Made by a program: the position numbers and the translations under genes. A stretch of 64,000 nt of DNA from an uncultured Pseudomonadota bacterium. Lineage in GTDB: Bacteria > Myxococcota_A > Polyangia > Fen-1088. The notes under the pieces were generated by a model. The model did not search any database and was not told the DNA's origin. It saw nothing but the letters and a program-made list of their open reading frames with translations. Positions 5,846 to 22,111 of the stretch are shown piece by piece. The number at the start of each line of letters is the position of its first letter. Within the stretch, counting starts at the first letter, position 1. Location: contig CAWKBC010000041.1 of NCBI GenBank assembly GCA_963847705.1, forward strand, positions 1 through 64,000. The letters are read 5' to 3'.

Positions 5846-7210
5846 ATGGGAAGAATCCTTCTATGCGACGACGAAGAGTCTCTGTGCCGGAGCCTGGGGC
5901 GCATTCTGCGCTCGGCGGGTCATGAAGTTGTCACGCAGAACGGCGAGCAGGGTCTGGCCCGCCTGCGCCAGGAGCGGTTCGACCTCATCCTGACCGACAT
6001 CCGCATGCCGGATGTCAGCGGGTTCGACATCCTGGCCGCCGCGCGTTTGCACGCGCCCGGCACCCCGGTCATTGCCATGAGCGGCAGCGCCGAGATCCCG
6101 GACGCCGTGCGGGCGATGCACGCCGGCGCGCGCGACTTCCTGATCAAGCCGTTCGAGACGCGCACGCTGGAGGAGTCAGTGGCAGCGCTGCTGAAGCCCA
6201 CGCCGCCCGAGCCGGAGCCCGACGCGCTCGCCTGGCGCGACAAGCACGCCCCCTGGCTGCTCGGCAACGACGCCAGCCTGCTTCCCGCGCTGGGTTTGCT
6301 GGCCCAGGTGGCCGACACCAGCTGCACCGTCCTCATCACGGGCGCGTCAGGAACCGGCAAGGAGCTGGTCGCGCGCTCACTGCACGCCGGCTCGGCGCGC
6401 AAGAACAAGCCGTTCGTGGCGGTGAATTGCGCCGCCATCCCGGCGAACCTGGTCGAGTCGGAACTGTTCGGTCACGCCAAGGGCTCGTTCACCGGCGCCT
6501 CGAGCGCGCGGACCGGCCGGTTCGCGCAGGCCGACACCGGCACGATCTTCCTCGACGAGATCGGCGAGATGGAGATTGGCGTCCAGGCCAAGCTGCTGCG
6601 CCTCATTCAGGACGGCGAGCTCTACCCCGTCGGCGAAGAGACCCCCACCCGCATCGACGTCCGCATCCTGGCCGCCACCAACCGCAACCTCGAACGCGAG
6701 GTGGCCGCCGGAAAGTTCCGCGCCGATCTCTACTGGCGCCTCAACGTCATCCCGGTCGAGATGCCGTCGCTGCGCGAGCGCCCGGGCGACATCGCGCCCC
6801 TGGCCGAGCACTTCCTGCGCCGCTCGAACGAGCGGCACAAGCGAGCCGTCGTCGGCTTCGAGCCCACCGCGGTGGGCGCGCTCGAGGCCTATCAGTGGCC
6901 CGGCAACATCCGCGAGCTGGAGAACCTGGTCGAGCGGCTGGTGATCGTCAAAGGCAAAGGGACGATCGCGATGACCGATCTGCCGCAGGCGGTCCGCACC
7001 CCCCGCTCCCTGACGCCCAGCAAGGGAACGCCGATCCCCGGCCTGCCCGAGGACGGGACGGATCTGCGCGCCATGCTGGAGGCGGTCGAGGACCGCATGA
7101 TCGGCGAGGCGCTGGAGCGCACCGGCGGCAACAAGAACCGCGCCGCCGAGCTGCTGGGATTGAACCGAACGACGTTGGTCGAAAAGCTCCGCCGCAAGCG
7201 CGTCGCGTAG
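5846..7210 (+). CDS. Sigma-54-dependent response regulator (NtrC/AtoC family: REC-AAA+-Fis HTH)
   Basis: ILLCDDE, DIRMP, GASGTGKELVA, ESELFGHAKGSFTGA, FLDEIGE, WPGNIRELEN, NRAAELLGLNRTTL. Confidence 0.95.
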   Translation: MGRILLCDDEESLCRSLGRILRSAGHEVVTQNGEQGLARLRQERFDLILTDIRMPDVSGFDILAAARLHAPGTPVIAMSGSAEIPDAVRAMHAGARDFLIKPFETRTLEESVAALLKPTPPEPEPDALAWRDKHAPWLLGNDASLLPALGLLAQVADTSCTVLITGASGTGKELVARSLHAGSARKNKPFVAVNCAAIPANLVESELFGHAKGSFTGASSARTGRFAQADTGTIFLDEIGEMEIGVQAKLLRLIQDGELYPVGEETPTRIDVRILAATNRNLEREVAAGKFRADLYWRLNVIPVEMPSLRERPGDIAPLAEHFLRRSNERHKRAVVGFEPTAVGALEAYQWPGNIRELENLVERLVIVKGKGTIAMTDLPQAVRTPRSLTPSKGTPIPGLPEDGTDLRAMLEAVEDRMIGEALERTGGNKNRAAELLGLNRTTLVEKLRRKRVA

Positions 7211-7245
7211 GGCACCTTCGGCTCGGTGCGCGCTAAGCTGCCTGC

Positions 7246-7593
7246 GTGAACGTTCAGCTGTTCGGGACCAAGAAGTGCGCGGAGACGCGCAAGGCCGAGC
7301 GTTGGTTCAAGGAGCGCCGGGTCACGTTGCACGTCGTCGACCTCGCGCAAAAAGGGATGGCGCCCGGCGAGCTGCGCAACGTCGCCGCGCGCGCCGGCGG
7401 CTGGGAGGCGCTGATCGATCGCGGCGGGAAGCGCTACCTCGACAAGGGCCTCAAGTACGCCGCGCCGACCGGGCCGCGCATCGAGCAGGCGCTGGTCGAC
7501 GATCCGCTGCTGCTCCGCACGCCGATCGTCCGCTCGGAAGGGCGCGCGACCGTGGGGTACGTGCCGGAGATCTGGGAGACCTGGCTTGGGTGA
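7246..7593 (+). CDS. ArsC/Spx/MgsR family protein
   Basis: QLFGTKKCAETRKAERWF and PLLLRTPIVR..ATVGY. Confidence 0.85.
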   Translation: MNVQLFGTKKCAETRKAERWFKERRVTLHVVDLAQKGMAPGELRNVAARAGGWEALIDRGGKRYLDKGLKYAAPTGPRIEQALVDDPLLLRTPIVRSEGRATVGYVPEIWETWLG

Positions 7594-7853: not shown

Positions 7854-8927
7854 CTATGCCGGTGGTCGTGGCTTTTCGTTGAGAGCATCGACGAACAGGC
7901 TGTCGGCGAGGCCAGCCAGGCCCGGGGTCCAGCGGGCGAGATGGCAGAGTACCTGTGAGGCTCTGACGACGGTGGCCGACAGAGGCTCCAGCAGGTCGAT
8001 GTCGCTGGGCTGAGCGTTCAGCGAAAGGAAGCCGTCGGGAGAGAGCGAGGTCGGGCCGACGAGCGCCGAGAACAGGCGTCGCATCTCTCCCGGTGTCCAG
8101 GCCCGCACGCGGAAACCGTACGGCGGCCGGTGCACGCGACGGAGCGAGTCGCGGGCGCGCTCCAGCAGTGCCGTCGTCTGATTGTAGAGTTGTCGAGCGC
8201 CGAGAACGTTCGCCAGTTGCACGCGAACCTTCCCTCCAGGACGGGTCACGCGGGACATCTCGCGGACGATCTCCGTGACGACGGCCTTGTCCAGATGCTG
8301 CAAGACGGAGTAGGAAAACGTCACGTCGATGCTGTCCGTGTCGAAGGGAAGGTGGCGGGCATCGGCCACCACATAGGCGACCTCGAGCCCCAGCTGCCGA
8401 GCGACGCGTCTTCCGGCAAGAGCTGCGGTCAGCGAGGGGTCGACGGCGACTGCCTTGAACCCCGCCCGACTGGCAGCGAGCGCCCAGCGGCCCCAGTTGG
8501 AACCGACGTCCAAGAGGACGTCGCCCGACCTGGGGAGAAGGCGAATCTCGGGAATCGGATAGCGAAGCAGTGGTCGCCGGTAGTGGCGGTAGAGCTGGCC
8601 ACAGGTCGCCGTCAGCCAGCGCTCGACGAAGGGATCGACGAAGGGATCGACGACGGGATCGACGACGGGATCGACGACGGGATCGACGACGGGACTCCCC
8701 GCGGCGGCGGCGGTCACCTGTTCTCGATGAGCTGCGACATCCTGGGTGGTGGTCCACCACGTGTGGTGGGTCCGAGGCCGATCCTCGCGCAGGAGAACCG
8801 GCACGCCCGCCACGAGGGGGAAGGAGTGCCGGGCAGGGCAATCCAAGGTCTGGTCTCTGGTGGCGAGACGAAGACCGTCGTAGGGACAGGTCAGGTGCCG
8901 GTCGAGCCAGGGTTCGATCCAGCTCAC
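7854..8927 (-). CDS. Trm112-like N-terminus fused to class I SAM-dependent methyltransferase
   Basis: LTCPYDG..CPARHSFPLVAGVPVLL (Trm112-like); LLDVGSNWGRW, ADARHLPFDTDSIDVTFSYSVLQH, RVTRPGG; GTG 8927 start is tentative (ORF open to 9002). Confidence 0.8.
   Translation of the reverse strand: MSWIEPWLDRHLTCPYDGLRLATRDQTLDCPARHSFPLVAGVPVLLREDRPRTHHTWWTTTQDVAAHREQVTAAAAGSPVVDPVVDPVVDPVVDPFVDPFVERWLTATCGQLYRHYRRPLLRYPIPEIRLLPRSGDVLLDVGSNWGRWALAASRAGFKAVAVDPSLTAALAGRRVARQLGLEVAYVVADARHLPFDTDSIDVTFSYSVLQHLDKAVVTEIVREMSRVTRPGGKVRVQLANVLGARQLYNQTTALLERARDSLRRVHRPPYGFRVRAWTPGEMRRLFSALVGPTSLSPDGFLSLNAQPSDIDLLEPLSATVVRASQVLCHLARWTPGLAGLADSLFVDALNEKPRPPA
8623..8694. repeat. 12-bp tandem repeat x6 (TCGACGAMGGGA) encoding PVVD/PFVD units in the methyltransferase
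   Basis: Directly visible; frame-preserving. Confidence 0.9.
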
Positions 8928-8958
8928 GAGGCTTCTGGCCCCCAGCAAGGGCCCGATC

Positions 8959-9264
8959 TCAACGGACCGGATCCGGCACTGACGCCACCAGGCCCTGACC
9001 ACTCAGCTCGGCAAGCAGCCCTCCAATGTCCCGTGTCAGGACCGCCGCATCGACCTCGTACTTCCCGCGCAGCTCTTCCACCAGCTCGGTCAGCATCAGA
9101 GGGCGGACCAACAGGCGAAAGACATCAGCACCGACTTGGTTCACTCTCCACGTGGTGCCCGTAGCCAGGTCCACCAGGAGCAATCCACCCTGGGACGTGT
9201 TCCTCGAGACCACGTTCGGGCAAACTCGGTAGCGAACCCCCGCAGCCACCTCCGGACTATACAA
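8959..9264 (-). CDS. PqqD-family RiPP recognition element (RRE, lasso B1-like)
   Basis: LLLVDLATGTTWRVNQVGADVFRLL..ELVEELRGKYEVD..DIGGLLAELSGQGLV; start uncertain (TTG 9264 or GTG 9249). Confidence 0.85.
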   Translation of the reverse strand: MYSPEVAAGVRYRVCPNVVSRNTSQGGLLLVDLATGTTWRVNQVGADVFRLLVRPLMLTELVEELRGKYEVDAAVLTRDIGGLLAELSGQGLVASVPDPVR

Positions 9265-9281: not shown

Positions 9282-10412
9282 ATGTACAAGCTCGACCACT
9301 ATCTCGGCATGATGCGCGATCGCCGCCGGATCGAGGCCCACGCTGAGGCCGTGCGGCGCGTGGTCAAACCTGGCGACGTGGTGCTCGACCTCGGGGCGGG
9401 GACCGGGGTGCTCTCCTTCATGGCCGTGCGCGCGGGCGCCGGACGGGTCTACGCCGTCGACCCCCATCCGATCATCGAGATCGCCCAGGAGGTCGCCGCC
9501 GCCAACGGGTTGGCGGAGCGCATCGCCTTCATTCAGGCCGACGCCCAGACCGTCGAGCCACCGGAACAGGTCGACTGCCTGATCGGCGACGTGCGCGGCG
9601 CCCTGCCGATCCTGGGCGACAATCTCGACCTCTGGGAGCGGGTGCGCCGCCGATGGTTGCGTCCAGAGGGGAAGACCATTCCGGTGAGCGACGACATGTT
9701 CGTTGCCGTGGTCGCCGCGCCGAAAGCACACGCGCGCGTCGTCGACTGGGGCGAGCCACGCCCTGAGGCCCACTACGACGTCGTTCGTCAGTTCGCCTCG
9801 GACATGACGTCATCCGCGAGATTCGATCCGGGAGAGGTCGTCTCGGCGGCGCAGAAATTCTGCTCTGTCCGCTACACGCAGGAGAACCCGAGAAAGTTCC
9901 AGCGCGAGCTTCGATTCGAGGTGAACGGCGACGTCACCATCACCGGATTGGCCGCCTGGTTCTCGGCGACGCTCGCAGAGGGTGTCTGGTTCGACACCTC
10001 GCCCGGGTCGGGGACCATGATCTACGGCCAGGCGTTCTTTCCATTGAGCAGACCGAGGCCCGCGCGCAAGGGCGAGGTCATCGTGGTCGATCTGGCGGCA
10101 CATCGGATATCGTCCAATACAATCTGGAACTGGCGCATCGGAGCAGAGACCGACCCCCGCTGGGAAGAGAGCCACTCCACGTTCCGAGGCGAAGCCTTGG
10201 GCCTCAACCGTCTGTCATTGATGGAGGGGACCCGATCTCCCGCATTGTCGACCGAGGGTGTCCTGGTCCGCCAGATTCTGAACGCCGTCGACGGTGAGAC
10301 GTCGGCGCGAGCGATCGCCGAAGCCATCGCCGCCGCTGGAGCGAACAGCCTCTCGTCCGTGGACGAGGCGCTCTCTCAGGTGATCCGGGTGATGGGGCTG
10401 TACGCAAAGTGA
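9282..10412 (+). CDS. PRMT-like class I SAM methyltransferase with C-terminal helical extension
   Basis: HYLGMMRDRRRIEAHAEAV, VVLDLGAGTGVLSF, VYAVD, PEQVDCLIGD, LRPEGKTIP, TGLAAWFSATL (PRMT beta-barrel-like). Confidence 0.82.
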   Translation: MYKLDHYLGMMRDRRRIEAHAEAVRRVVKPGDVVLDLGAGTGVLSFMAVRAGAGRVYAVDPHPIIEIAQEVAAANGLAERIAFIQADAQTVEPPEQVDCLIGDVRGALPILGDNLDLWERVRRRWLRPEGKTIPVSDDMFVAVVAAPKAHARVVDWGEPRPEAHYDVVRQFASDMTSSARFDPGEVVSAAQKFCSVRYTQENPRKFQRELRFEVNGDVTITGLAAWFSATLAEGVWFDTSPGSGTMIYGQAFFPLSRPRPARKGEVIVVDLAAHRISSNTIWNWRIGAETDPRWEESHSTFRGEALGLNRLSLMEGTRSPALSTEGVLVRQILNAVDGETSARAIAEAIAAAGANSLSSVDEALSQVIRVMGLYAK

Positions 10413-10465: not shown

Positions 10466-12013
10466 GTGAGTCTCAAGACTCGGCGCGTCCTCCTGATGGT
10501 CGCGATGGGAGCGATCGTCTTCGAGCCCTTCCTGTTCGCCGGATCGTTCGCTGGTGACGCCGAGGTTCATCTCGTCTTTGCCGAGAGCGCCTCCCACGGG
10601 AGGTTCTTCGAGTTCAACCCGGGAGAGCGCGTCTCCGGCGAGACGAGCCCAGGCTACATGTTGCTGGGCGCGGCTCTGTTCCACGTGATGCCCGCCCACT
10701 GGGTCCCTGTCGCGTTGAAGTTGCTCGGACTCGGGGCGTGGTACCTGCTCTGCTGGCTGGTCTACCGCGTCGCCACGAGCATCTTCGCTGCCGACGGCGA
10801 GGAACGCCGCGCCTGGCCAGCGGTCGCCGCGGTGACGGCCGCGCTCATTCCCGGGTCCGTCTACAACGCAAACGTCGGGATGGAAAATGGTCTGTTCGCG
10901 GCGGTTGTTTGGTGGTGGATCGAGCTCGCCGATCGATGGAGCTGGTTCCGCCCCGCGGAGCCTCGGGCGGAGGAAGGGCCGCTCGGCCGAGAGCTCGCGC
11001 TGGCCACCTTGCTGGGCGTCTCGTGCTGGCTGCGCCCCGAGGGATTCGTGCTCGCCGGTGCGGCCCACGCCTCTCGATATTGGACGGCGCGGCCTCGAGC
11101 GCGGCGCTGGCTGGCCGGACTGTCCCTGGTCGTCGTCATCGGGCTGGCGAGCGTCGTCTTCCAGTTCGCCTGCACCGGTGACTGGGTCGCGACCTCCATC
11201 CTCTCCCGCCGTGTTCTGACGATGTCGAGATCTCTGTCCCTGGGGCCGCTGGCCATCGACCCCACGTTTGCGGGGCGCCTGCTCCTCTATTTCCCTTTGA
11301 CGGCCTGCTTCGTCTGGGGTGTTTGCCGACGGCAGAGCCCTGGTTCCGAGCTGGAGAAGTTCCTTCTGACGTTGCTGGCCCTCTTCTTCGTTTTCTACAC
11401 GTGCGTCACCGGTTCCGCCCAGCTCAGCCGCTACGTGATCTTCTTGATGCCAATCTTCGCCATCGGCGCGGCGCACGGTGCGCGTGCTCTTTGGGAGAGC
11501 GGAGAGCGCAACCAGCGGCAGCTGCTGGCAGTCGCGGCCCTGGTATTCGGCGTCACCAATGTCGCCGAGCTCTGGTACCGTCGAGGGCACTACTCACAGG
11601 ATCTCCTCAGCAGCGCCATGACAGCCCCTCGAGAGCGCCGGGCGCAGACTGATGCTCTCCTGAACGAGCTGGACCAACCATCGAAGCGCCCCGTCGTTCT
11701 GGCGTTGGAGGCCGTTCAGGCCCGATACGAGCTGGACGGCCGGATCACGATTCGGTCGCTCGACGGGCGCGTCGACCGCGCCCTGCTGGCGTTCGTTCAC
11801 GCCGGCGCAATCGACCATATCGGATATCTCAAGGCGCGCGGCGTGGACTACCTTTTCAAGCCGCCGTCATACAATCGGGATCTCTCGGTCTGGTCCCTCT
11901 CGGACCTGGCCACCCTCAAACCTGGCGAAGCCGTCCGTCGTGACGGGCTGCGGTTGCGGCGTCTCACCTCGGCGGCCTTCGCCGTCGAGACAGCAGATTC
12001 GCCGGCCCGCTGA
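10466..12013 (+). CDS. Polytopic membrane protein, probable GT-C fold glycosyltransferase (ArnT/PMT-like)
   Basis: Many hydrophobic segments; GDAEVH, FNPGERVSGETSPGY, GMENGLF, LRPEGFVL, RYVIFLMP motifs. Confidence 0.6.
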   Translation: MSLKTRRVLLMVAMGAIVFEPFLFAGSFAGDAEVHLVFAESASHGRFFEFNPGERVSGETSPGYMLLGAALFHVMPAHWVPVALKLLGLGAWYLLCWLVYRVATSIFAADGEERRAWPAVAAVTAALIPGSVYNANVGMENGLFAAVVWWWIELADRWSWFRPAEPRAEEGPLGRELALATLLGVSCWLRPEGFVLAGAAHASRYWTARPRARRWLAGLSLVVVIGLASVVFQFACTGDWVATSILSRRVLTMSRSLSLGPLAIDPTFAGRLLLYFPLTACFVWGVCRRQSPGSELEKFLLTLLALFFVFYTCVTGSAQLSRYVIFLMPIFAIGAAHGARALWESGERNQRQLLAVAALVFGVTNVAELWYRRGHYSQDLLSSAMTAPRERRAQTDALLNELDQPSKRPVVLALEAVQARYELDGRITIRSLDGRVDRALLAFVHAGAIDHIGYLKARGVDYLFKPPSYNRDLSVWSLSDLATLKPGEAVRRDGLRLRRLTSAAFAVETADSPAR

Positions 12014-12053: not shown

Positions 12054-12335
12054 ATGAAGGATGATCCCCGAGCCCCGCTGGCCCCTCCGGCGGTCGTCAT
12101 GCAGCCCACCGAGAGCGGTGCGGTTCTGATGGACCCGGTGACGGGCGACTGCTTCGAGCTCAACCGACTCGGCGCCGAGATTTGGAGCCTCCTGGCAGCA
12201 GGTGATTCGTCCTCGCAGATCGCGACCAAGCTGGCCCTCAGATATGAGGTCCCCGAGATGACGGTCGCGGCCGACGTGCAGACCCTGGTCGCCGATCTGG
12301 CGCGACATGGTCTCCTCGACCTTCGGGACCGATGA
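12054..12335 (+). CDS. PqqD-family RRE protein
   Basis: AVLMDPVTGDCFELNRLGAEIWSLL..IATKLALRYEV..ADVQTLVADLARHGLL. Confidence 0.9.
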   Translation: MKDDPRAPLAPPAVVMQPTESGAVLMDPVTGDCFELNRLGAEIWSLLAAGDSSSQIATKLALRYEVPEMTVAADVQTLVADLARHGLLDLRDR

Positions 12336-13318
12336 CCAGAATCGCGCATCACGCGCTGCTGAAGTTCGACGCCGCAGCCCTGCTACTGGATCTGCGATCG
12401 GGCGGTCTTTTCCAGCTGAACGAATCGGCGACCTTCGTCTGGGAACACTGGCTGGGGGAGATGACCACCGGGGAGATCGCATCGGCGCTCGCCCAGACTT
12501 ACAGACTCCCCCTCGAGACCGCCGGTGAGCACGTCGCGGCGGCGCTGGCGAGCAAGGCGATCGCGGCTCCGCCACCCACCGAGTTCGTCTACGAGCGTTG
12601 GGCGAACCGGTACCTGTTTTCCCGCGGGGCCGAGTCGATTCTGACCGTCGACGATCGGGGCGGCGCGATCGCGCTCGCCGAATCCTCGCCGATCGCGGTC
12701 GATGACCTCCGCAACGTGTTGCTGGCGATCTCGCCCAAGCTCCTGGCGCTGCGCGGTCACTGCGTGCTGCACGCCTCCGCGGTGCTGCTGGGGAGCGAGG
12801 TCTTGGCATTCTGTGGCGAGAGCGGCGCGGGAAAGACGACGACCGCGCGAGCGCTGGCGCAGGCAGGCGCCAGCCTCGTTTGCGAAGACAAGCTGGTGAT
12901 CCAGAGGCGAGGCGATTGCGTCGAAGCGGTGACCGGCATCGAGGCGATGCTGTTGCGCTGGTCGCAGGCGGCGGCAGAGACCCTGCTGACTGGCACGGCG
13001 GCCCCTTGCCCCGATCTCGATCACTCGGACGGCCGCCAGCCTCTTGCCCTGCGCGAGATCGGGTTCATCGATGCGACGCGCCGCAAGGGTGGAGAGATCG
13101 CGGCCGTCCCGCTGACCCCGCTGGCAGGCGCTGCCGGTGTCTTTCGTAACACCTTCTACGGCTCCGACGTCTCAGGCGACTGGGCGCGACAGCTCCACCT
13201 GGCCGGGGAGATCGCCCACCGAGTCGCCACCTACGAGCTCACGATGCCGGCCGGGACGGAGCGGCTGCCGGCGGCGGCGGCGAATCTGGCGCGGCGGGGA
13301 TCGCTCAGATCGCGATGA
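12332..13318 (+). CDS. RRE (PqqD) domain fused to HPr-kinase-like P-loop kinase
   Basis: N-terminal LLLDLRSGGLFQLNESATFVWE..IASALAQTY; then VLHASAV..FCGESGAGKTTTA..LVCEDKLVI; ATGA overlap with the upstream RRE gene. Confidence 0.82.
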   Translation: MTRIAHHALLKFDAAALLLDLRSGGLFQLNESATFVWEHWLGEMTTGEIASALAQTYRLPLETAGEHVAAALASKAIAAPPPTEFVYERWANRYLFSRGAESILTVDDRGGAIALAESSPIAVDDLRNVLLAISPKLLALRGHCVLHASAVLLGSEVLAFCGESGAGKTTTARALAQAGASLVCEDKLVIQRRGDCVEAVTGIEAMLLRWSQAAAETLLTGTAAPCPDLDHSDGRQPLALREIGFIDATRRKGGEIAAVPLTPLAGAAGVFRNTFYGSDVSGDWARQLHLAGEIAHRVATYELTMPAGTERLPAAAANLARRGSLRSR

Positions 13319-13691
13319 CTGCGTCGTAGCGCTCGGTCGCCGGATCGGACTCCAGCCAGGCGTGGCCGGACCCCGGTCGGCCGCCCAGCTGCAGACCGGC
13401 GAAGAACCGCTCGCGCGCAGCGCCTCCGTCGAGCGCAATCTCGATCAGCGCCCGCCGCACGCAGTTCTGGCCGCCCGGCAACCGCCGGTCGACCGCGCCA
13501 ATCAGCCGCTTCAGTCGTCTGCGCGCAGCCGGAGAGCGTGCCCCGCGCGCGACACCGCCGCACCGGGCCACGGCCACCGCCCGATGGAGGCTCAGCTCCC
13601 GTCTCCATCGATCGACCAGGGGGATGAGCCGTACCACCCCCCAAAGATCCCGGGCCAGCCCGGGAGCGCCTCTCAAACCAGACGAGGACAT
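13305..13691 (-). CDS. Lasso peptide leader peptidase B2 (transglutaminase-like)
   Basis: NCVRRAL (catalytic Cys) and GHAWLE (catalytic His); directly downstream of the precursor. Confidence 0.85.
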   Translation of the reverse strand: MSSSGLRGAPGLARDLWGVVRLIPLVDRWRRELSLHRAVAVARCGGVARGARSPAARRRLKRLIGAVDRRLPGGQNCVRRALIEIALDGGAARERFFAGLQLGGRPGSGHAWLESDPATERYDAVIAI

Positions 13692-13716
13692 GGCCCCGAA
13701 CAAACCTCCCGAGGCC

Positions 13717-13905
13717 TCAGCCAGCTTGGTTCGGTTTGATCGTCGGATTCGCGTCCGGAGAGGTCCCGGTGCTGCCGGCGAGCAGATCTCTCGCGTTCCC
13801 CACCAGAGTCAACGTCGGCGCTTCATATCGCGAAACGGGCGAACCCACACGCTCGCCCATCGAACCTGCCGGGACTTCGCCATTTCCACTCTTGGGATCG
13901 CTCAT
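13717..13905 (-). CDS. Lasso peptide precursor, 62 aa; predicted core GSTGTSPDANPTIKPNQAG
   Basis: Leader YEAPTLTLVGNARDLLA matches YxxPxLxxxG; Gly1 and Asp8; GGAG upstream of ATG; sits between cyclase and B2. Confidence 0.88.
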   Translation of the reverse strand: MSDPKSGNGEVPAGSMGERVGSPVSRYEAPTLTLVGNARDLLAGSTGTSPDANPTIKPNQAG

Positions 13906-13909
13906 CTGG

Positions 13910-15787
13910 TCAGCTCCGGCCACTATTGTAATTGAAAACCCCGCGAAGCCAAGCCTCAAGACCGCCAAGCGCCAGGACCGTGGAGAGGCTCTGTGCCGGG
14001 AGTGTGGCGCCACCATTCAGCGCGGTCTCGAACATTGCGCGCGCGATCCCGCGATCCACGAATGGGGAGCTCACCCACGCACCCGTCCGAAAGAAAGGAG
14101 CCAGGCTCGGAACGGTGCGTCGCGCCGTGGCCTTCCAGACGTCGGTCCACGGTTTCTGGCCCCTGCGACCCGCGAACTCGGGCGGAAGGAGCGGACCGAG
14201 GGCGTCCCGTCCGGTGCGTCGGTGATGCCCCCGCGGATCCCGTTGCGCCCAGGGGAGGGCCATGACGCATTCGATCAGTCGAACGTCCGCGTGCGGCAGG
14301 CGAACCTCGAGACCGTCCTCGCTTCCGTAGTCGGTCATCCCTTCGATCTGCGCTCCCGTGCGGGGGCGTGTGAGCCGCGCCCAGAGATCCGCCAGCAGGT
14401 GTGAGGACCAATCGACCGAGGGGAGCTCGAGCAGCTCCGCTGAAGGGGGATAGATCTCTCGCAGGCGAGGGCCCATCCACTCGGGAGGGGGCGCGAAACC
14501 ACCCTCGAGCCGATGCGCGATCGTTGGGGCCAGGGCCGGATTGAGGATGCCGAGCCCCCAGTCGATGGTGTGTCGAAGCGCCGAGAAGCCGAGCCCCGCG
14601 CGACGCACGTGGCGAAGCACGATGTCCAGCCGCGCACGGCGGACGAAGTCGCGCAGGACGCCTCCGGCGTACCAGACCTCGTCTCCCATGAACCCCGAGA
14701 CGAGGACGCGGGCGCCCTTCTGCCGTGCAATCTCCAGATCACGCCGAGGGCCCCCGGCCAACCCGATCCGGACAGTGGGCGCACCCCGGAAGACACCAGG
14801 GAACGACGAGGAGGTCTCCTCGATGATGTTCCAGCGAAGCCCTTCGAACGAGACACGCGACGCGACCGCGTCCATGTAGTTCGACTCGTCGCAGGCGAAC
14901 CCAGGCGCCAAGGCCGAGACCATGATCAGCGGCGCGCGGCCGGGTTCGGATCGGTAGACCTCCTCTGCGGCCATGAGGATGGTGCTCGAATCGAAGCCGC
15001 CACTCGAATGGGCCACGATCGGATGGTCGGACTCGAGTCGATCGCGCACCGCTCTCCGAAACACACTCCGCAGGCGTTCACAGTTCTCGTCGTACGACAG
15101 AGAGGTATCGGGCGTCGCCGGCGGCATCCAGTACCGACTCTCCACCACCTCACGCGCGGTCGCGATCAAACGGTGGCCTGGCCGAAGGCGAACGAAACCT
15201 CGAAAGAGTGTCCGTCTTGGATCGGACACATGCTCGCTCAGCAGATCCAGAATCTGAGGGGCGGCGAGCTCGTCCAGCGGATCGTTCAGCAGCGGCATGA
15301 GCTGATGCAGCCGAGAGGCCACGACGATCCCCTCGGACGCCTTTCGAAAGAACAGGGGTCTCGTCCCCAGATGGTCCCGTGCGGCGAACAGGATTCGCCG
15401 ATCGTCGTCCCAGGCCGCGAAGGCAAAGTCGCCGACCAGATGGCGTGGACTCTCCGGGCCCCAGCGCAGGTAGGCCTGCCTTGCCAGCTCGAGATCCGCG
15501 CACTCTCCTTGTGACGCGGCTATCCCCAGCTCGGCGAGCAGCTCGGGACGGTTGTAAAGACGCACGTCGCCGCAGAACAAGAGCCCGCGGGCGGCATCCC
15601 AGGAGGGCGCCGCCTGCTCATCGCGCCGGACCACGGCCCATCGGCTCAGACCGGCGGCGCCGTGAGGCGACTCGGCGAACCTGGTGCCCTCGGACGGATC
15701 CAGTGGAGGCGCCTCGAAAAGGCGCCGGGCAGTTGCCCTCACCGGCGGGCCGTCGACGAAAGCTGCCGCTAGTCCAAAGACAAACAC
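13910..15787 (-). CDS. Lasso cyclase (asparagine synthetase-like C protein)
   Basis: RLYNRPEL, GDFAFAAWD, ARDHLGTRPLF, HSSGGFDSS, SGFMGDE, EVRLPHADVRL; no N-terminal catalytic Cys. Confidence 0.88.
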   Translation of the reverse strand: MFVFGLAAAFVDGPPVRATARRLFEAPPLDPSEGTRFAESPHGAAGLSRWAVVRRDEQAAPSWDAARGLLFCGDVRLYNRPELLAELGIAASQGECADLELARQAYLRWGPESPRHLVGDFAFAAWDDDRRILFAARDHLGTRPLFFRKASEGIVVASRLHQLMPLLNDPLDELAAPQILDLLSEHVSDPRRTLFRGFVRLRPGHRLIATAREVVESRYWMPPATPDTSLSYDENCERLRSVFRRAVRDRLESDHPIVAHSSGGFDSSTILMAAEEVYRSEPGRAPLIMVSALAPGFACDESNYMDAVASRVSFEGLRWNIIEETSSSFPGVFRGAPTVRIGLAGGPRRDLEIARQKGARVLVSGFMGDEVWYAGGVLRDFVRRARLDIVLRHVRRAGLGFSALRHTIDWGLGILNPALAPTIAHRLEGGFAPPPEWMGPRLREIYPPSAELLELPSVDWSSHLLADLWARLTRPRTGAQIEGMTDYGSEDGLEVRLPHADVRLIECVMALPWAQRDPRGHHRRTGRDALGPLLPPEFAGRRGQKPWTDVWKATARRTVPSLAPFFRTGAWVSSPFVDRGIARAMFETALNGGATLPAQSLSTVLALGGLEAWLRGVFNYNSGRS

Positions 15788-15844: not shown

Positions 15845-17872
15845 TCAGTAGAATACGACGACTCGCCCCACCTTGCCGGGCGCAAACTCGCCGATGGCGA
15901 AGTCGGCGTATCCATCCTCGTTGGAGTCGACAATGAGGCTCATCCCTCCGTAGCCCTCCCAGTTGCCCGGGAAGTGATTCGGGGCCTTGACGATCGAGGG
16001 GACCACAGCGGCTTGAGCGGCCGCCACGTCTACGATTCCCGACATCGAGGCGAGGGCGTTCCCGTTCACGATGTAGATCGGCGTGCCCGTTTCGGACTGT
16101 CCGGCCACCACGAGATCCGGAACCGTGTCGCCTCCGATGAACGAGACACCTTGCGAAGTCCCTTTGACGCCTCCGCCAAGATTCACGACGCCGAACGAGT
16201 TGCCCGCCGTGGTGTCCTCCAACCGTACGGTGGGAGCCGGCGCGCTTCCGGATGCGCCCAGGAGCGGTCCCATCGACGCAGTACCCAAGTTGACGTCCAC
16301 GAACGGCGGAGTTGCGGAGGTCGCAGCGACCGATACGGCGCCCGGACCTCCGATCGACCCCAGGAATCCAAGATCGAATCCGTAGAAGTCGGCGGCGGTC
16401 GTGACCGTCGAGTCGTTCGCCCCGCTCGCGGTCAACACACCCGTCGGGGCCTGTCCCGCGAACGCGTAGATTGCGCTCGCGCCGGGCGCCGACGTGACCA
16501 GCGAGGCCCCGGCCGGGCTGGGGAAGAACTGGCCGATGCCGATGGTCGTCAGGCCCAAGAACCCGCCCGCGACCGTCCCGTCGACTTCGATGGTCCCGGC
16601 GCCGGGGATCGTCCCTGACGCAAACGCGCTGCTGCCCTTCACGATGAGGAGACTCCCGGCGTTCGTCTTGGCCAGGGCGAAGCCAATCGCCAGATCGTCG
16701 GACCCGCTTCCGTCGAAGTTCCCGAGCCGCGCCATTCCCGCCGGCTGGATCGACCCCACTCCGCCGGCAAACGTCCCGTCGGCGGTCAGAATGTAGTTCG
16801 CCTGCGTGTCTGTCAGCGTCGCGGGCCAGCTGTTCGTCGTTCCCCAGGAGGAGGGCGGGTTCTTGCGGCTGAAGATGTAGATCTTCCCGCCGCCGCCGTC
16901 GTTCGGCGACGCGATCGCGATATCGGCAAGCCCGTCTCCATCCAGGTCACCCGCGTTGACGACGGCCTGGCCAAAGTCAGCGACCGTCCCCGTGATCGTG
17001 ATCGAAGGTGTCGAGGCATATCCAGCCGCGGTGCCGAAGTAGATGTAGGCATGATTGCCGCCGTCAGCGCCGACAATCAGATCGGAGAACCCGTCCGCCG
17101 TGAAGCTCAGGCTTCCCGCCGTTCCGAAGTCCCCGGAGCCGTCGAGATCCTGCCCGATTCCGTCGGTGCCGGTTCCAGAGAGCGTGGTCGTCAAGAACTG
17201 CGCCTCGACGGCGACGGCGGTGGCCATGATGGTCCCACGCGTCCCGGAGCCGTCCTTGCCCACGATGGCAAAGTAGTAGCCCTGCTCGATGTTGAGGTTC
17301 TTGACGACCATTCCATCGAGCTTGCCAGGCGCCGCGGGCACGCCCGTGTATGCGACCGTCAAGGTCACGGTGGTGTCGTCGAAATTGGCGGTCGTGATGG
17401 GAACCTTGGCCACCCGAATGTCGTAGCCGGCGACCGTCCCGCCCGTGCCGGTCGCCGGTGCGGGCCAGGTGAGGCTGAAGGAGGTTTGACGCCGATCCAG
17501 AACGACGGCGGTCAGTTCGAGAGGAACCGCCGCGTCGGTGCCGCCGTCGGTTTCGGATTTCCCAGCGCCGCCGCCCTGACCGCCGGTTCCACTGCCCGCG
17601 CTCCCCGCAGGACCACCGGAGGCGCCGCCCGCGCTGCCCGCAAGACCACCGGCGCCGCCGCCCGCGCTGCCCGCAAGACCGCCGGCGCCGCCGCCCGCGT
17701 TGCCCGCAAGACCGCCGGCGCCGCTGCCCGCGCTGCCCGCATGACCGCCGGAGCCCGTGCCTGCGCTTCCTGCATGACCGCCGGAGCCCCCGTTACCAGA
17801 CCCACCGCCGCATCCGCCAACGACGAGAATCCCTACCAGCGAGAGAAATCGAAACTGCGACGACCTTCCCAT
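15845..17872 (-). CDS. Lipoprotein with Gly-rich linker, FN3-like domain and FG-GAP (integrin-alpha-like) repeats
   Basis: Lipobox LVVGGC; GGSAG repeats; LTWPAP..GYDIRVAK; DFGQAVVNAGDLDGDGLADIAI, NFDGSGSDDLAIG, DSNEDGYADFAIG. Confidence 0.8.
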   Translation of the reverse strand: MGRSSQFRFLSLVGILVVGGCGGGSGNGGSGGHAGSAGTGSGGHAGSAGSGAGGLAGNAGGGAGGLAGSAGGGAGGLAGSAGGASGGPAGSAGSGTGGQGGGAGKSETDGGTDAAVPLELTAVVLDRRQTSFSLTWPAPATGTGGTVAGYDIRVAKVPITTANFDDTTVTLTVAYTGVPAAPGKLDGMVVKNLNIEQGYYFAIVGKDGSGTRGTIMATAVAVEAQFLTTTLSGTGTDGIGQDLDGSGDFGTAGSLSFTADGFSDLIVGADGGNHAYIYFGTAAGYASTPSITITGTVADFGQAVVNAGDLDGDGLADIAIASPNDGGGGKIYIFSRKNPPSSWGTTNSWPATLTDTQANYILTADGTFAGGVGSIQPAGMARLGNFDGSGSDDLAIGFALAKTNAGSLLIVKGSSAFASGTIPGAGTIEVDGTVAGGFLGLTTIGIGQFFPSPAGASLVTSAPGASAIYAFAGQAPTGVLTASGANDSTVTTAADFYGFDLGFLGSIGGPGAVSVAATSATPPFVDVNLGTASMGPLLGASGSAPAPTVRLEDTTAGNSFGVVNLGGGVKGTSQGVSFIGGDTVPDLVVAGQSETGTPIYIVNGNALASMSGIVDVAAAQAAVVPSIVKAPNHFPGNWEGYGGMSLIVDSNEDGYADFAIGEFAPGKVGRVVVFY

Positions 17873-17935
17873 GAGCGCACCCCCCTTGGCCGACGGTTGT
17901 TCGTTGCACCTTCGACAAGTCGTCGTTTATCACCT

Positions 17936-20900
17936 TTAGTAAAAGACGACCACCCTTCCGACCTGGCCAGGTGCGAACTCGCCCACCGCGAAGTCGGGTT
18001 GTCCGTCGCCGTTCGAGTCAGAAATCAGCCCCGCTCCACCGTAGCCGCGCCAATCGGACGGGATCTGCCCCGTGACCTTGATTACGGTCGGCACCAGGCC
18101 CAGCTGCAGTTGCGCGCCCGAGACATCGACGTTCCCCGAGAGTGAGGGCATCGCCGCGCCGTTCACGATGTAGACCGGAGCTCCAGTCTCGGACTGACCA
18201 CCGACGACGAGATCGGGTGCCGCGTCGCCGCCAACGAGCGACAACGTCTGGGAGGTCCCTTTGACGCCGCTCCCCAGGTTCACGACTCCGAAGGAGTTTC
18301 CAGCCTGCGCATCGCTCAACCGGAAGGAGGCGGCGGGAGCGCCGCCGGCCACGCCCAGCAGAGGTCCAGTCGCGGCGGTCCCGAAATGGACGTCGACGTA
18401 GGCAGGCGCCGCGTACGGTGCCCCGATCGTCACCGCGCCAACAGAGCCGCCGACCGACCCCAGGTAACCCAGGTCGAACCCGTAGAAGTCCGCGGCCGGC
18501 GCAACCACCGAGTCGTTGGCCCCCGCGGCGGTCAGGACACCGGATGGCGACTGCCCCGCGAATGCATAGATCGCGCTCGCACCAGCGGCCGCCGTCACGA
18601 GTCCCGGTCCATTTGGTGACGGGAAGAACTGCCCGATTCCCACGGTGGCGAGACCGAAGAACCCGCCCGCGGCCGTCCCGTCGATCTCTATCGTTCCCGC
18701 TCCCGGGATCGTCTGCGAAGCGAAGCTCGAGCCCCCCTTCACGACGAGCAGGCTCCCCTTCAATCCGTTGTCGAGAGCGAACCCGATCGCCAGATCGTCC
18801 GAGCCCGTCCCGTCGAAGTTGCCGAGCCGCGCCATCCCCGCTGCCTGAATCGAGCTGATGCCCCCGGCGAAGGTCGGATCAGCCGTCAATACGTAGTTCG
18901 CCTGGGTGTCCGACAACGTTGCTGGCCAGCTGTTGGTCGTCCCCCAAGAGGCGGGCGGATTCTTGCGGCTGAAGATGTAGATCTTTCCGCCGCCGCCGTC
19001 GTTGGGCGAGGCGATCGCGATGTCCGCCAGACCATCACCGTCGAGATCTCCGGCATTCACGACCGCCTGCCCGAAGTCCGCCACCGATCCGGTGATCGTA
19101 ATCGAGGGCGTCGCCGAGTAGCCGGCCGCGGTCCCGAAGTAGACGTAGACGTGAGTTCCATTGTCGGCACCGACGATGAGGTCGGAGAATCCGTCAGCCG
19201 CAAAGCCCAGACCGTTCGCGGTTCCGAAATCACCGGAGCCGTCCAGGTCCTGCCCCACCCCGTCCGTCCCGACGCCGGTCAGGACCGTGGTCAGGAAGTG
19301 CGCAGTCGTCGCGGAGGCCGTCGTCACCATCGCGCTGGTGGTCCCCGCGACATTGCTCGCCTCGACCGCGAAGTAGTACCCGTTCTCGATGTAGAGGCTG
19401 CTGACGTTGATGCCATCGAGCTGGCCCACGTTCGCCGGCGTTCCACTGTAGGGAACCGCGACCGTAACGGTGCTGTCATTGAAGTTGCTGGCGGTGATCG
19501 GCACCTTCGCATACCGGACCTGGTAGCCGGCGACGTTCCCGCCATTGCCATCGCTGGGCGCCGTCCAGGTCAGCTGCATCGTGGTCTGCCGCCGCAGGTT
19601 TGGTGGGATTGATACATTCAATCCCGCCGGCGCGTTCGGTGTCGCGGTATCCACCGTCACCGTCACGGTCCCACTCCCCACGCCCGCGCCCGGCACGTTG
19701 TCCGTCGTGGCGAGGATCGTCTGGGTCCCCTCGGGGATGGTGACGCTGTTGAGCTGCGCGTGGCCGGTCGCGTCCGTCAGGGCGCTGCCGAACGTCGTGG
19801 CGCCGTCACTGAAGGTGATCTGGCTGCCGTTCACCGGCGCGCCGCTGGCCGTCACGGTGACCGCCAGGCTCCCTTGCCAACCGGGCGTGCTCGGGTCGGT
19901 GTCGGCGATGCAGCCGGGGGTGGTCGAACCGTTCGGGCACAGCAACGCGCCCGCGGTCGGCGTCGTGAACGTCACCACCGGGGCGGTCCCGACGGTCACG
20001 GTGCAGGTGGCCAGCACGGTCGCGTTGCCGGCCGGATCGCTTTCGGTCGCGACCAGCGCGTTCTGGCCCTCGGCGAAGGCGACGCTGCCGAAGGTGGCGA
20101 CACCGCCGACGTAGGCCGGCGTGTCGTAGGTGGTGGTGACACCGTTGTTGGTCACGTCGGCGACGACCAGCTTGTCGTCGGCGGTGTAGGCGACGTCCTC
20201 GGTGACGGTGGTCGCCGACTGCGTGAAGCTGCCGCACAGGCCCGCGGGCGAAACCAACGCCAGGCTCGGCACCACCGTGTCGACCCAGACGTCGTCGGGC
20301 TGGCTGGTGCCGGTGTCGGCGCTGTTGGTGGCCGAGGTGATGGAGACCTGCAACTCCGTCGCGGTGGCCAGCGTGCCGTCGGCGTTCTCATTGCTCTCGG
20401 GCAGCGTCACGCCCACGAAGTGGGCCACGAAGCCGGACCCGTTCGGGCAGTTGTCGCCGGCGGCGGCGGCGGTGGTGAGGATCGCGCTCCCCAGCTGGAC
20501 CAGGCTGCTGTCGCCCTTGTGGCCGACGAACAGCGTGGCCGTCCCGGCGGTGTCGGTGCAGGCGACGACGTCGGCCTGAGCGCCCGGCGTGCTGGCGTCC
20601 TCGTCGAGGACTCCGGCGGGGGCGTTGGCCGCCAAGATGTGCTTGGTGGGATCGGTGAACGTGGGCGCGTCGGACGCGGGCCTGACAATCTGAACCCCCG
20701 GCAACGACGAGGCGCAGGTGACGCCCGTGATCGTCTGGGTCGTCGGGTTGCCAGCGGCGTCGTTCAGCGTGAAGGTCAGGCTGAACGGTGCGGCGCCCGG
20801 GCAGGCCAGGCTGACGCAGGTCGAGGTGTTGACGGCAGAGACCGCGACGCAGGAGGGTGTGGCCGACGAGCCGAGGGTGACGCAGAGGTTGTTCCGGCCG

Positions 20901-22111
20901 CTGCCGAGCGAGCCCGCCAGGCTGGCGGCGTCGCTCGAGCTCGTCTGGGCGCAGGCGTTGACCGTTCCGCCGACGACGAACTGGCCCGCGGTGGGGCTGT
21001 TCACGGCCAGGGCGGGCGGAGTGGTGTCGACGGTGAAGCTGCTCTTCGTCGAGGTTCCGGTGATCCCCTCTTTGTTGAGGCAAGTCGCGATCACTTCGTA
21101 CGTGCCGTCGGGAACCAGGGTCAGCCCGAAGCTGGCGCTGCCGCCCGAGACGATGGCGCTGGGCGTGCCGTCGACGGGCGTGCCCGGCGCGGCGGCGTTG
21201 TCGACCGCCAGCGTGACGGTCTGGCCGTCCTCGGCGCTGGTGCTGACCACGAAGGTCGCCTGGTAAGGCGAGCTGCTGGAGCTCGAACGATCGCCCTGCG
21301 GCGTGGGGACGCCGTTCAGATCCGGGTGCGTCGCGCTGATCACCGGCGCGCTGATCGTGCAGGTGGGCGGGCTGTCCGGGCAGCTCACCGTCACGTTTTC
21401 CGTGACACTGCAGGCCGCCGTGCTCGGGTACTGGATCGACAGCTGCTGAGCCGTGCTGCTGGTCGCGAGCTGAACCGCGAAGGACGCCGTGCCGCCGCTG
21501 ACCTTGACGGTCTTGAGCAGCGAGGTGCCGTCATAAAGGGTCACGTCGGTCCCGTCCGGCGCGCCGGAGGTGATGGTGACCGTGTATTGGAATCCGTCGG
21601 CGCAGGTCTGGTCGCTGTCGTCGGCGACGGTCAGGAGCGCACCTGATGTCGGCGCCGTGAACGCGGTCGTGTAGCAGGCCGTCGCGCCGCCGGTGCCACC
21701 ACCCGCGCCACCGGTGCCGCCACCTACGCCGCCCGTGGCGCCGCCCACCCCACCCGTTCCAACGAGGCCCCCCGTTCCGCCGCCCTTGCCGCCGACGCCG
21801 CCGGTGCCGCCACCGACGCCGCCCGTCGCGCCGCCCACCCCGCCCTTGCCGCCGGCGCCGCCGCCGACGCCGCCCGTGGCGCCGCCGACACCGCCCGCGC
21901 CGCCGTCCGTTGGGCTGCCCGCAACGCCGCCGCTTCCACCGTCGATGGTGCCGCCTGCTCCGCTCCCTCCCCCGCTCCCGCCGACTCCGATGGAGCCACC
22001 GGTTCCCGTCTGCGCGGGGGCGTTGTCACCACACCCGACGGTGAGCCCGACAACGGCGAGCAACGGAAGCGAAAACGAGAACGAAGCTAAACGAGCGCGG
22101 ATGTACCCCAT
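17936..22111 (-). CDS. Large surface lipoprotein: Gly-rich stalk, Ig-like repeats, FN3-like domain, FG-GAP repeats
   Basis: Lipobox LTVGC; TVDTTPP and DAAGN Ig-like motifs; C-terminal region closely paralogous to 15845..17872. Confidence 0.82.
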   Translation of the reverse strand: MGYIRARLASFSFSLPLLAVVGLTVGCGDNAPAQTGTGGSIGVGGSGGGSGAGGTIDGGSGGVAGSPTDGGAGGVGGATGGVGGGAGGKGGVGGATGGVGGGTGGVGGKGGGTGGLVGTGGVGGATGGVGGGTGGAGGGTGGATACYTTAFTAPTSGALLTVADDSDQTCADGFQYTVTITSGAPDGTDVTLYDGTSLLKTVKVSGGTASFAVQLATSSTAQQLSIQYPSTAACSVTENVTVSCPDSPPTCTISAPVISATHPDLNGVPTPQGDRSSSSSSPYQATFVVSTSAEDGQTVTLAVDNAAAPGTPVDGTPSAIVSGGSASFGLTLVPDGTYEVIATCLNKEGITGTSTKSSFTVDTTPPALAVNSPTAGQFVVGGTVNACAQTSSSDAASLAGSLGSGRNNLCVTLGSSATPSCVAVSAVNTSTCVSLACPGAAPFSLTFTLNDAAGNPTTQTITGVTCASSLPGVQIVRPASDAPTFTDPTKHILAANAPAGVLDEDASTPGAQADVVACTDTAGTATLFVGHKGDSSLVQLGSAILTTAAAAGDNCPNGSGFVAHFVGVTLPESNENADGTLATATELQVSITSATNSADTGTSQPDDVWVDTVVPSLALVSPAGLCGSFTQSATTVTEDVAYTADDKLVVADVTNNGVTTTYDTPAYVGGVATFGSVAFAEGQNALVATESDPAGNATVLATCTVTVGTAPVVTFTTPTAGALLCPNGSTTPGCIADTDPSTPGWQGSLAVTVTASGAPVNGSQITFSDGATTFGSALTDATGHAQLNSVTIPEGTQTILATTDNVPGAGVGSGTVTVTVDTATPNAPAGLNVSIPPNLRRQTTMQLTWTAPSDGNGGNVAGYQVRYAKVPITASNFNDSTVTVAVPYSGTPANVGQLDGINVSSLYIENGYYFAVEASNVAGTTSAMVTTASATTAHFLTTVLTGVGTDGVGQDLDGSGDFGTANGLGFAADGFSDLIVGADNGTHVYVYFGTAAGYSATPSITITGSVADFGQAVVNAGDLDGDGLADIAIASPNDGGGGKIYIFSRKNPPASWGTTNSWPATLSDTQANYVLTADPTFAGGISSIQAAGMARLGNFDGTGSDDLAIGFALDNGLKGSLLVVKGGSSFASQTIPGAGTIEIDGTAAGGFFGLATVGIGQFFPSPNGPGLVTAAAGASAIYAFAGQSPSGVLTAAGANDSVVAPAADFYGFDLGYLGSVGGSVGAVTIGAPYAAPAYVDVHFGTAATGPLLGVAGGAPAASFRLSDAQAGNSFGVVNLGSGVKGTSQTLSLVGGDAAPDLVVGGQSETGAPVYIVNGAAMPSLSGNVDVSGAQLQLGLVPTVIKVTGQIPSDWRGYGGAGLISDSNGDGQPDFAVGEFAPGQVGRVVVFY

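Follow-up and report, generated by a model that had tools for sequence, protein, structure and literature searches.

Known lasso peptide kinases

The closest described system is the bsf lasso cluster of Bradymonadales (Duan et al. 2023), in which the kinase BsfK phosphorylates Ser3 in the ring of the precursor (PMC10368454). The reaction is strongly accelerated by the RRE BsfB1, is strictly confined to position 3, accepts Thr and does not proceed on the leaderless core (PMC10368454). Residues H148, K169, S170, D186 and D187 of BsfK matter for activity, D186A being impaired, and phosphorylation persists after loss of the leader Tyr, Pro and Leu (PMC10368454). The BsfA leader carries Ile(-2); an I(-2)L variant is barely cleaved by BsfB2 (PMC10368454). 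LppK also acts on an internal residue, namely core Ser3 of a linear peptide (PMC13381572). In LppB, N33 and D70 anchor YxxP leaders; loss of the Asn nearly abolishes binding and D70A weakens it (PMC13381572). The acidic pair of the L. casei HPr kinase is D178-D179 (PMC1885854).

An older view holds that lasso kinases modify a C-terminal Ser (PMC9266682, PMC8498205, PMC13352647, PMC12639078). The original prediction for the kinase gene studied here took this to be the rule for all characterised lasso kinases and regarded an internal site as a new regiochemistry. The former is contradicted by BsfK acting on ring Ser3 (PMC10368454), and the latter is already on record with BsfK and with LppK at core Ser3 (PMC13381572). 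Since internal ring phosphorylation has been known since 2023, no new reaction class is to be expected; novelty could lie at most in the exact ring position.

A predicted complete lasso cluster

The window, i.e. the whole stretch of DNA analysed, comprises 64,000 nt. Judged by its gene content it holds a complete lasso cluster, as precursor, B1, B2 and cyclase are predicted together. The plus strand carries the stand-alone RRE B1 (12054..12335, 93 aa; PqqD E 2.5e-17; NF033530 E 9e-18, 64.3 bits at a cut-off of 70), in which anchor Asn and Asp are both kept, and the kinase gene K (12332..13318). The minus strand carries the leader peptidase B2 (13305..13691; Transglut_core3 E 9.4e-6) with its Cys-His-Asp residues, the precursor A (13717..13905, 62 aa; NF033521 E 0.0043, 17 bits at a cut-off of 19, and family alignment) and the asparagine-synthetase-like cyclase C (13910..15787, 625 aa), for which the best family is NF033535 (E 1.3e-63, below its cut-off). 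B2 starts with an ATG at 13691, and an in-frame TTG is located upstream at 13703. In 33 B2 homologues Cys and His are invariant and Asp is kept in at least 90%. Family B2 proteins are short (about 128 aa) and match the NCBIfam B2 model poorly.

Two accessory genes precede B1 on the plus strand: an arginine-methyltransferase-like SAM enzyme (9282..10412) and a polytopic membrane protein weakly resembling LA_3751-type glycosyltransferases (10466..12013; NF047440 E 1.8e-4), each with a counterpart in 5 of 25 well-flanked loci. C, A and B2 converge on this plus-strand run of both accessory genes, B1 and K. A second stand-alone RRE (8959..9264; PqqD E 1.3e-11) overlaps the start of an accessory class I SAM methyltransferase (7854..9002; counterpart in 2 of 25 well-flanked loci), and both face away on the minus strand. 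A scan for promoters and terminators yielded nothing decisive.

K joins an RRE to a kinase domain

K encodes 328 aa from ATG to TGA without internal stops. Its start ATG overlaps the B1 stop, and the 3' ends of K and B2 overlap by 14 nt. An RRE is assigned to residues 3-77 (12338..12562) by the PqqD match and the fold of the model. Residues 17-73 match PqqD (PF05402) at E 1.2e-10 with 41.9 bits, well above the cut-off of 23.4. The HPrK/PEPCK-fold kinase domain (12581..13306) contains H147 (12770-12772), the P-loop G162-T169 (12815-12838), E185-D186 (12884-12889) and E204 (12941-12943). With PF05402 above its cut-off and H147 and G162-T169 in place, the ORF has the composition originally described, a PqqD-like N-domain with a LHASAV/GESGAGKTT kinase.

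Downstream of PqqD all P-loop and HPr-kinase matches in Pfam are sub-threshold, and NCBIfam agrees. The kinase part scores 17.2 bits against Hpr_kinase_C (PF07475; E 0.0038, cut-off 33.3) and 14.4 against TIGR00679 (cut-off 240), which places K outside HPr kinase/phosphorylase proper. TIGR04355 is matched at E 5.7e-6 with a score far below its cut-off. PF27840 is found in the precomputed annotation of many K homologues and might be a recent family for RRE-fused kinases.

An AlphaFold2 model of K was built from an alignment (A1) of 69 of 86 homologues and reached a mean pLDDT of 93.3 and a pTM of 0.91. Its N-domain consists of three strands and three helices in the winged-helix RRE fold. Residues 3-77 of the model superimpose on TbiB1 (5v1u) with Z 9.0 (rmsd 2.0, 75 aligned) and on the lasso B1 6jx3 with Z 8.3 (rmsd 2.7, 77 aligned). 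Folding of this domain as an RRE had been named beforehand as decisive, and the model agrees with it. The modelled C-domain resembles PEPCK (Z 9.6, rmsd 4.3, 206 aligned) and HPr kinases (Z 8.3-9.1), Foldseek being in agreement. According to the model, K is a PqqD-type RRE joined to an HPr-kinase/PEPCK-fold domain.

Comparison with known kinases

K resembles BsfK in several respects. Both are HPrK-like kinases of lasso clusters, their cores lack a C-terminal Ser, B1 directly precedes the kinase gene, and motif spacing is equal (H148/K169/D186-D187 in BsfK, H147/K168/E185-D186 in K). A Gly1-Asp8 ring, predicted in the case of K, and a non-Thr aliphatic residue at -2 are also common to both clusters. 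K aligns with the Bsf-type kinase of locus L163 at 31% over 116 aa (E 4e-11; hhalign 97.7%). In contrast, BsfK has a separate RRE and D-D, whereas in K the RRE is fused and the pair is E-D, and K belongs to a separate branch of the tree. The leader has Ile(-2) in bsf but Leu(-2) here, with Val(-2) in 7 of 46 relatives. The conserved hydroxyl is at position 3 there and at 5 or 4 in the RRE-kinase family. Moreover an exporter and a nucleotidyltransferase adjoin bsf; neither adjoins the cluster here, which has a convergent two-operon layout. A bsf-like ABC exporter was seen near only 1 of 49 fused loci.

PadeK, ThcoK, SyanK and PsmK are likewise HPrK homologues with a His-Lys-acid-Asp set (PMC9266682, PMC8498205). 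Such paeninodin-type kinases act on the linear precursor before maturation (PMC9266682, PMC8498205), an ordering that we assume for K too. They differ by a conserved C-terminal Ser in the cognate core, which is absent here. LppK shares with K the HPrK-like fold family and a YxxP leader, and is described with a discrete RRE and internal Ser3 (PMC13381572). Unlike K, it belongs to a linear product with a signal-peptidase-type protease, and the available description gives it no cyclase and no RRE fusion and has it reject Thr (PMC13381572). With HPr kinase/phosphorylase (PF07475) and PEPCK, K has in common the predicted fold and the active-site layout (His, P-loop, acidic pair); it differs from HPr kinase/phosphorylase by an RRE in place of the HPrK N-domain, by scoring below the Pfam cut-off and by its lasso context.

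Distribution and phylogeny of the family

At E<=1e-20 the kinase profile matches 38 of the order's 89 genomes (G084 having unfused relatives only) and 25 of 401 genomes of a phylum sample at E<=1e-12, with fusion in 2 of the 20 strongest fetched. The family B2 profile matches 37 of the 89 genomes, 36 of them common to the kinase profile. For the K family the best 150 of 338 representatives (50% identity, E<=1e-30) were retrieved. The resulting 205-protein set consists of 77 of the 86 homologues (the 9 weakest dropped) and 128 new ones. Named relatives are labelled Polyangia or Myxococcales, which makes this lineage the probable origin of the window.

The RRE is retained in 200 of the 205 homologues. 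Among 49 non-redundant fused loci B2 was found in 47, convergent with K every time. Cyclase C is present in all 25 well-flanked loci and accessory genes in only 2-5 of these. Within the cluster the kinase counts as a core gene. In the tree the fused kinases form one branch (98/92) separate from 15 unfused kinases, and 48 of 49 fused RREs also fall into one branch (SH-aLRT 96, few columns). A joint clade of the fused kinases with 6 rows of the Bsf-type branch was rejected (p-AU 0.021), the test being weak as the group was picked after the tree. Taken together the sequences point to one old fusion event, plausibly of adjacent B1 and K genes such as those of the Bsf-type locus L163.

Two other origins were discarded. 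An assembly artefact or one-off fusion is incompatible with an RRE in 200/205 homologues and 48/49 fused RREs in one branch. Recent duplication of B1 at each locus is not reflected in identity, which is 21% to the cognate and 21% to non-cognate B1.

Variants of the architecture were seen as well. At locus L063 the RRE is located at the C-terminal end. The homologues P0021, P0114, P0123 and P0143 are longer (420-454 aa); P0021 and P0114, both of which were scanned, have two PqqD domains before the kinase, B1 and the RRE-kinase forming a single chain, and P0021 could be a read-through of overlapping genes. Longer fused forms of 736-2100 aa were not found, which is weak evidence. RRE-plus-kinase-like architectures may occur in other phyla, as atlas entries for Pseudomonadota (PqqD-bearing clusters, 383 and 401 aa, at 0.93) would suggest. 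A sister type of the cluster, at loci L141-L144 and L150, combines an arginine-methyltransferase-like gene, cyclase and precursor with a kinase that is unfused and has D-D wherever the motif was read. The same arginine-methyltransferase-like family recurs beside fused kinases, and the window core is devoid of Arg.

A kinase-less complete cluster of the same family was not found among the loci of the order examined. L146 (G005:C50, a 3.6 kb contig) has B1 and B2 without K, cyclase or precursor and unrelated genes at K's usual place, and is apparently a remnant cluster. The literature searched, with few subscription papers covered, contained neither the RRE-kinase fusion nor the E-D swap, the invariant extra Glu, the Leu(-2) leader or a position-5 site.

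The kinase active site is conserved but altered

H147, G162 and K168 are invariant in all 49 locus kinases, and H147, K168 and D186 in 205/205 database homologues, partly owing to similarity-based selection. H147, K168 and D186 are equivalent to H148, K169 and D187 of BsfK. Position 185 is Glu in 43/49 locus kinases and 192/205 homologues and Asp in 14/15 unfused kinases; five fused kinases have D-D. Compared with the paeninodin-type His-Lys-Asp-Asp set, K hence keeps His, Lys and the second Asp, while the first Asp is replaced by Glu185. E204 occurs in 204/205 homologues; in unfused kinases the same column is variable, and Glu is not one of its frequent residues. Asp-to-Glu variants of HPrK were not described in the literature searched. 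The likeliest reading of this conservation pattern is that the kinase is active and its metal site modified. E185-D186 instead of D-D, as well as Leu instead of Thr as penultimate leader residue, had been overlooked in the original prediction.

The fused RRE as putative docking domain

The fused RRE of K keeps the Asn in beta3 (N30) and has His68 at the site of the Tyr-binding Asp in alpha3, both mapped to LppB N33 and D70 by conservation pattern and the 6jx3 alignment, not by superposition. In the stand-alone RREs of these loci the anchor Asn is present in 46/46 and the anchor Asp in 45/46. The fused RREs have the Asn in 42/49 and the Asp in 17/49 (lost in 32/49). Among the 205 database homologues the values are 194/205 for the Asn and 104/205 for the Tyr-binding Asp. 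Fused RREs lack the Gly-Leu at the C-terminal end of the last helix. As BsfK tolerates loss of leader Tyr, Pro and Leu, relaxed selection on the Tyr pocket would fit an RRE that serves the kinase. Judged by its anatomy, the fused RRE of K is a putative docking domain for the precursor leader. RRE-kinase fusions are not mentioned in the main text of the RRE-Finder paper (PMC7470986, where 'kinase' occurs 0 times) or in the available text of PMC12325987.

Precursor and leader

The precursor leader contains Tyr(-17), Pro(-14), Leu(-12) and Leu(-2) (13780-13782) and conforms to YxxPxL. The core (13720-13776) has 19 residues, Gly1-Gly19, including Thr3 (13768-13770), Thr5 (13762-13764) and Asp8 (13753-13755), with cleavage site and core start placed by the Tyr(-17) spacing. 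Counting from Tyr(-17) leads to the same core as described initially, ending in NQAG with Ser/Thr at 2, 3, 5, 6 and 12.

In the family the usual leader Thr(-2), to which Ile and Val are published exceptions, is absent, position -2 being Leu in 39, Val in 7 and Thr in 0 of 46 leaders, found by a search pattern that imposed Tyr, Pro and Gly(-8). Gly-Asn at -8/-7 is conserved in these leaders. Gly1 and Asp8 are each present in 36/46 cores. Two Cys occur in 24/46 cores, none in 22/46 and one in 0/46, in tail-tail or ring-tail positions; this none-or-two pattern suggests a disulfide under selection. Kretsch 2023 is said to list precursors with Ile, Val or Ala(-2) and may include some of the RRE-kinase family.

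Ring hydroxyls are conserved at position 4 or 5

The search covered 58 loci, the fused ORF being intact in 55 and truncated or broken in 3. In 8 of them the script retrieved no precursor and 4 were duplicates, leaving 46 cores. A C-terminal Ser is found in 2/46, and the window core ends with Gly. All 46 cores have Ser/Thr in the ring (positions 2-7), and tails have 15% Ser/Thr. The counts at positions 2 to 7 are 16, 17, 15, 28, 5 and 8. Position 4 or 5 is Ser/Thr in 40 cores and neither in 6. Shuffling within the ring (5000 tries) never attained the values 28 and 40. As control we used another order, in which 14 of 30 loci, kinase-free within 1.5 kb, gave 16 precursors with Thr(-2); this lineage is distant because the search for kinase-less members of the family itself found none. 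Here the ring Ser/Thr counts are 2/16 (position 4 or 5) and 6/16. Fisher values for family versus control are about 1e-7 and overstated, because the genomes are related and not independent and the control lineage is distant. Unfused myxococcal kinase clusters include many with hydroxyl-rich rings and a few without any ring hydroxyl.

Within the kinase clade of the window (100/97) position 5 is Ser/Thr in 12/12 cores, with ACN and TCN codons both in use. Position 3 is so in 9/12, and positions 2, 6 and 12 in 3/12, 2/12 and 3/12. In L004, whose kinase is 72% identical, and in L050 position 5 is the sole ring hydroxyl. Among 15 cores with a single ring hydroxyl it is located at position 5 in 6, at 4 in 6, and once each at 2, 3 and 6. 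Across the kinase tree the hydroxyl switches between 4 and 5 more than once, which argues against a single fixed site.

The comparison across the family thus favours an internal residue over a C-terminal Ser, as predicted originally. Of the 'ring or loop' site proposed there, the ring is favoured by 40/46 cores at position 4 or 5 and 12/12 at 5 in the clade, and the loop is not, with tails at background. Thr5 is the best candidate site, at roughly even chances, and Thr3 comes second. Glycosyltransferase or methyltransferases were dismissed as general cause of the ring Ser/Thr, being present in only 2-5 of 25 loci.

Proposed role and alternative explanations

We predict that K, docked on the linear precursor through the leader, phosphorylates a ring hydroxyl at the expense of ATP. 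Ring phosphorylation of the BsfK kind is probable; with Thr5 as the specific site, the proposal is about equally likely to hold or to fail. Going by the domain anatomy, the fused RRE would bind the leader of the still-linear precursor and would play for K the part that the stand-alone BsfB1 has for BsfK, so that the separate B1 would be free to assist peptidase B2. By analogy to BsfK and PadeK, K would use ATP/Mg, phosphorylation would precede B2 cleavage and cyclisation, and the ring would be closed between Asp8 and Gly1. Several observations count against parts of this proposal. The first Asp of D-D is Glu in most fused kinases, and BsfK D186A is impaired (PMC10368454). The Tyr-binding Asp is mostly lost in fused RREs and is His in K. 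Against Thr5 in particular, the sole characterised ring kinase uses position 3, and Thr3 is present in the window core too.

The same enzyme logic could apply to Thr3, the BsfK position, or to several ring hydroxyls, and the site would not be new. BsfK acts strictly at position 3, where it tolerates Thr (PMC10368454), LppK acts on Ser3 (PMC13381572), and 9/12 cores of the window's clade have Ser/Thr there. However, three close relatives whose kinases have intact catalytic motifs carry Ala, Asn or Glu at position 3. Moreover only 17/46 cores family-wide carry Ser/Thr at this Bsf-type position, and the fused kinases do not group with the Bsf-type ones (p-AU 0.021). We regard this as unlikely. 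Somewhat better placed, though still doubtful, is a partly degenerate fused RRE with a structural or B1-docking function, the leader being brought by B1; this would be compatible with ring phosphorylation. It would account for the Asp loss in 32/49 and the missing Gly-Leu of the last helix, considering that LppB D70A weakens binding (PMC13381572), and it suits the position of B1 next to K with an overlapping start codon and the homologues in which B1 is fused to the RRE-kinase. On the other hand the Asn on which binding by LppB largely depends is kept in 194/205, the domain persists in 200/205 homologues, and the model is confidently that of a full RRE.

The Glu-Asp pair together with Glu204 could also indicate changed chemistry, e.g. 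another metal or phosphate donor, transient phosphorylation leading into a further step, or an ATP-binding scaffold for cleavage or cyclisation. E185 (192/205) and E204 (204/205) are indeed family-specific, unfused kinases having Asp and a variable residue, and an obligatory role would suit the fact that no complete cluster of the family was seen without K. Yet the His, Lys and second Asp for phosphotransfer are invariant, the swap looks tolerated given five fused kinases with D-D, and no lyase-like or other partner among those tested is common to all loci, making such a change quite improbable. Least probable is another target, be it Thr12 or some other residue of the tail, a different protein or a small molecule. 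The fold is common to PEPCK and HPr kinases and would allow for it, but tail positions are at background (Ser/Thr in 3 to 10 of up to 46 cores), and both the RRE and the constant association with lasso genes speak for the precursor.

Returning to a leader-docked ring kinase, its widest form would be a large clade of self-contained RRE-kinases with a rewired site (Glu-Asp plus extra Glu), in which the own docking domain serves as ruler for ring position 5 (4 in some branches) on Leu(-2) precursors. We put this forward tentatively, at clearly less than even chances. If true, lasso kinases would gain a third class of modification site, and the family would supply a leader-programmed peptide kinase that is portable, along with a B1/B2 pair whose P2 preference is new.

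Lasso kinases have been difficult to study, being poorly soluble or turning over slowly when their RRE is absent. With a natural RRE-kinase in a single chain, the influence of leader docking on the modified position could be tested directly; such an enzyme could also find use in peptide engineering as a leader-programmed kinase. The family offers 46 predicted cores behind Leu/Val(-2) leaders, about half of them with a likely disulfide. Products from the lineage of RRE-kinase clusters were not found in the literature searched.

Genomic surroundings

An ArsC-like gene lies beside the cluster in the window (5846-7593, plus strand) and in 10 of 49 loci, usually together with a sigma-54 response regulator. 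Variable accessory genes are located between it and the cluster, resembling a recurring genomic site with high turnover. The RRE at 8959-9264 and the methyltransferase at 7854-9002 (both minus strand) have counterparts together in locus L104. Near 8625-8695 this methyltransferase gene encodes a short run of Asp-Pro units, each of four residues, repeated in tandem. Beyond the cyclase, at 15845-22111, the window encodes FG-GAP repeat proteins; bsf, too, is bordered by an FG-GAP gene. Elsewhere in the genome (G000) two further PqqD-like genes (C17:231863-232093 and C32:271801-272013) are each located near a weakly related kinase-like gene.
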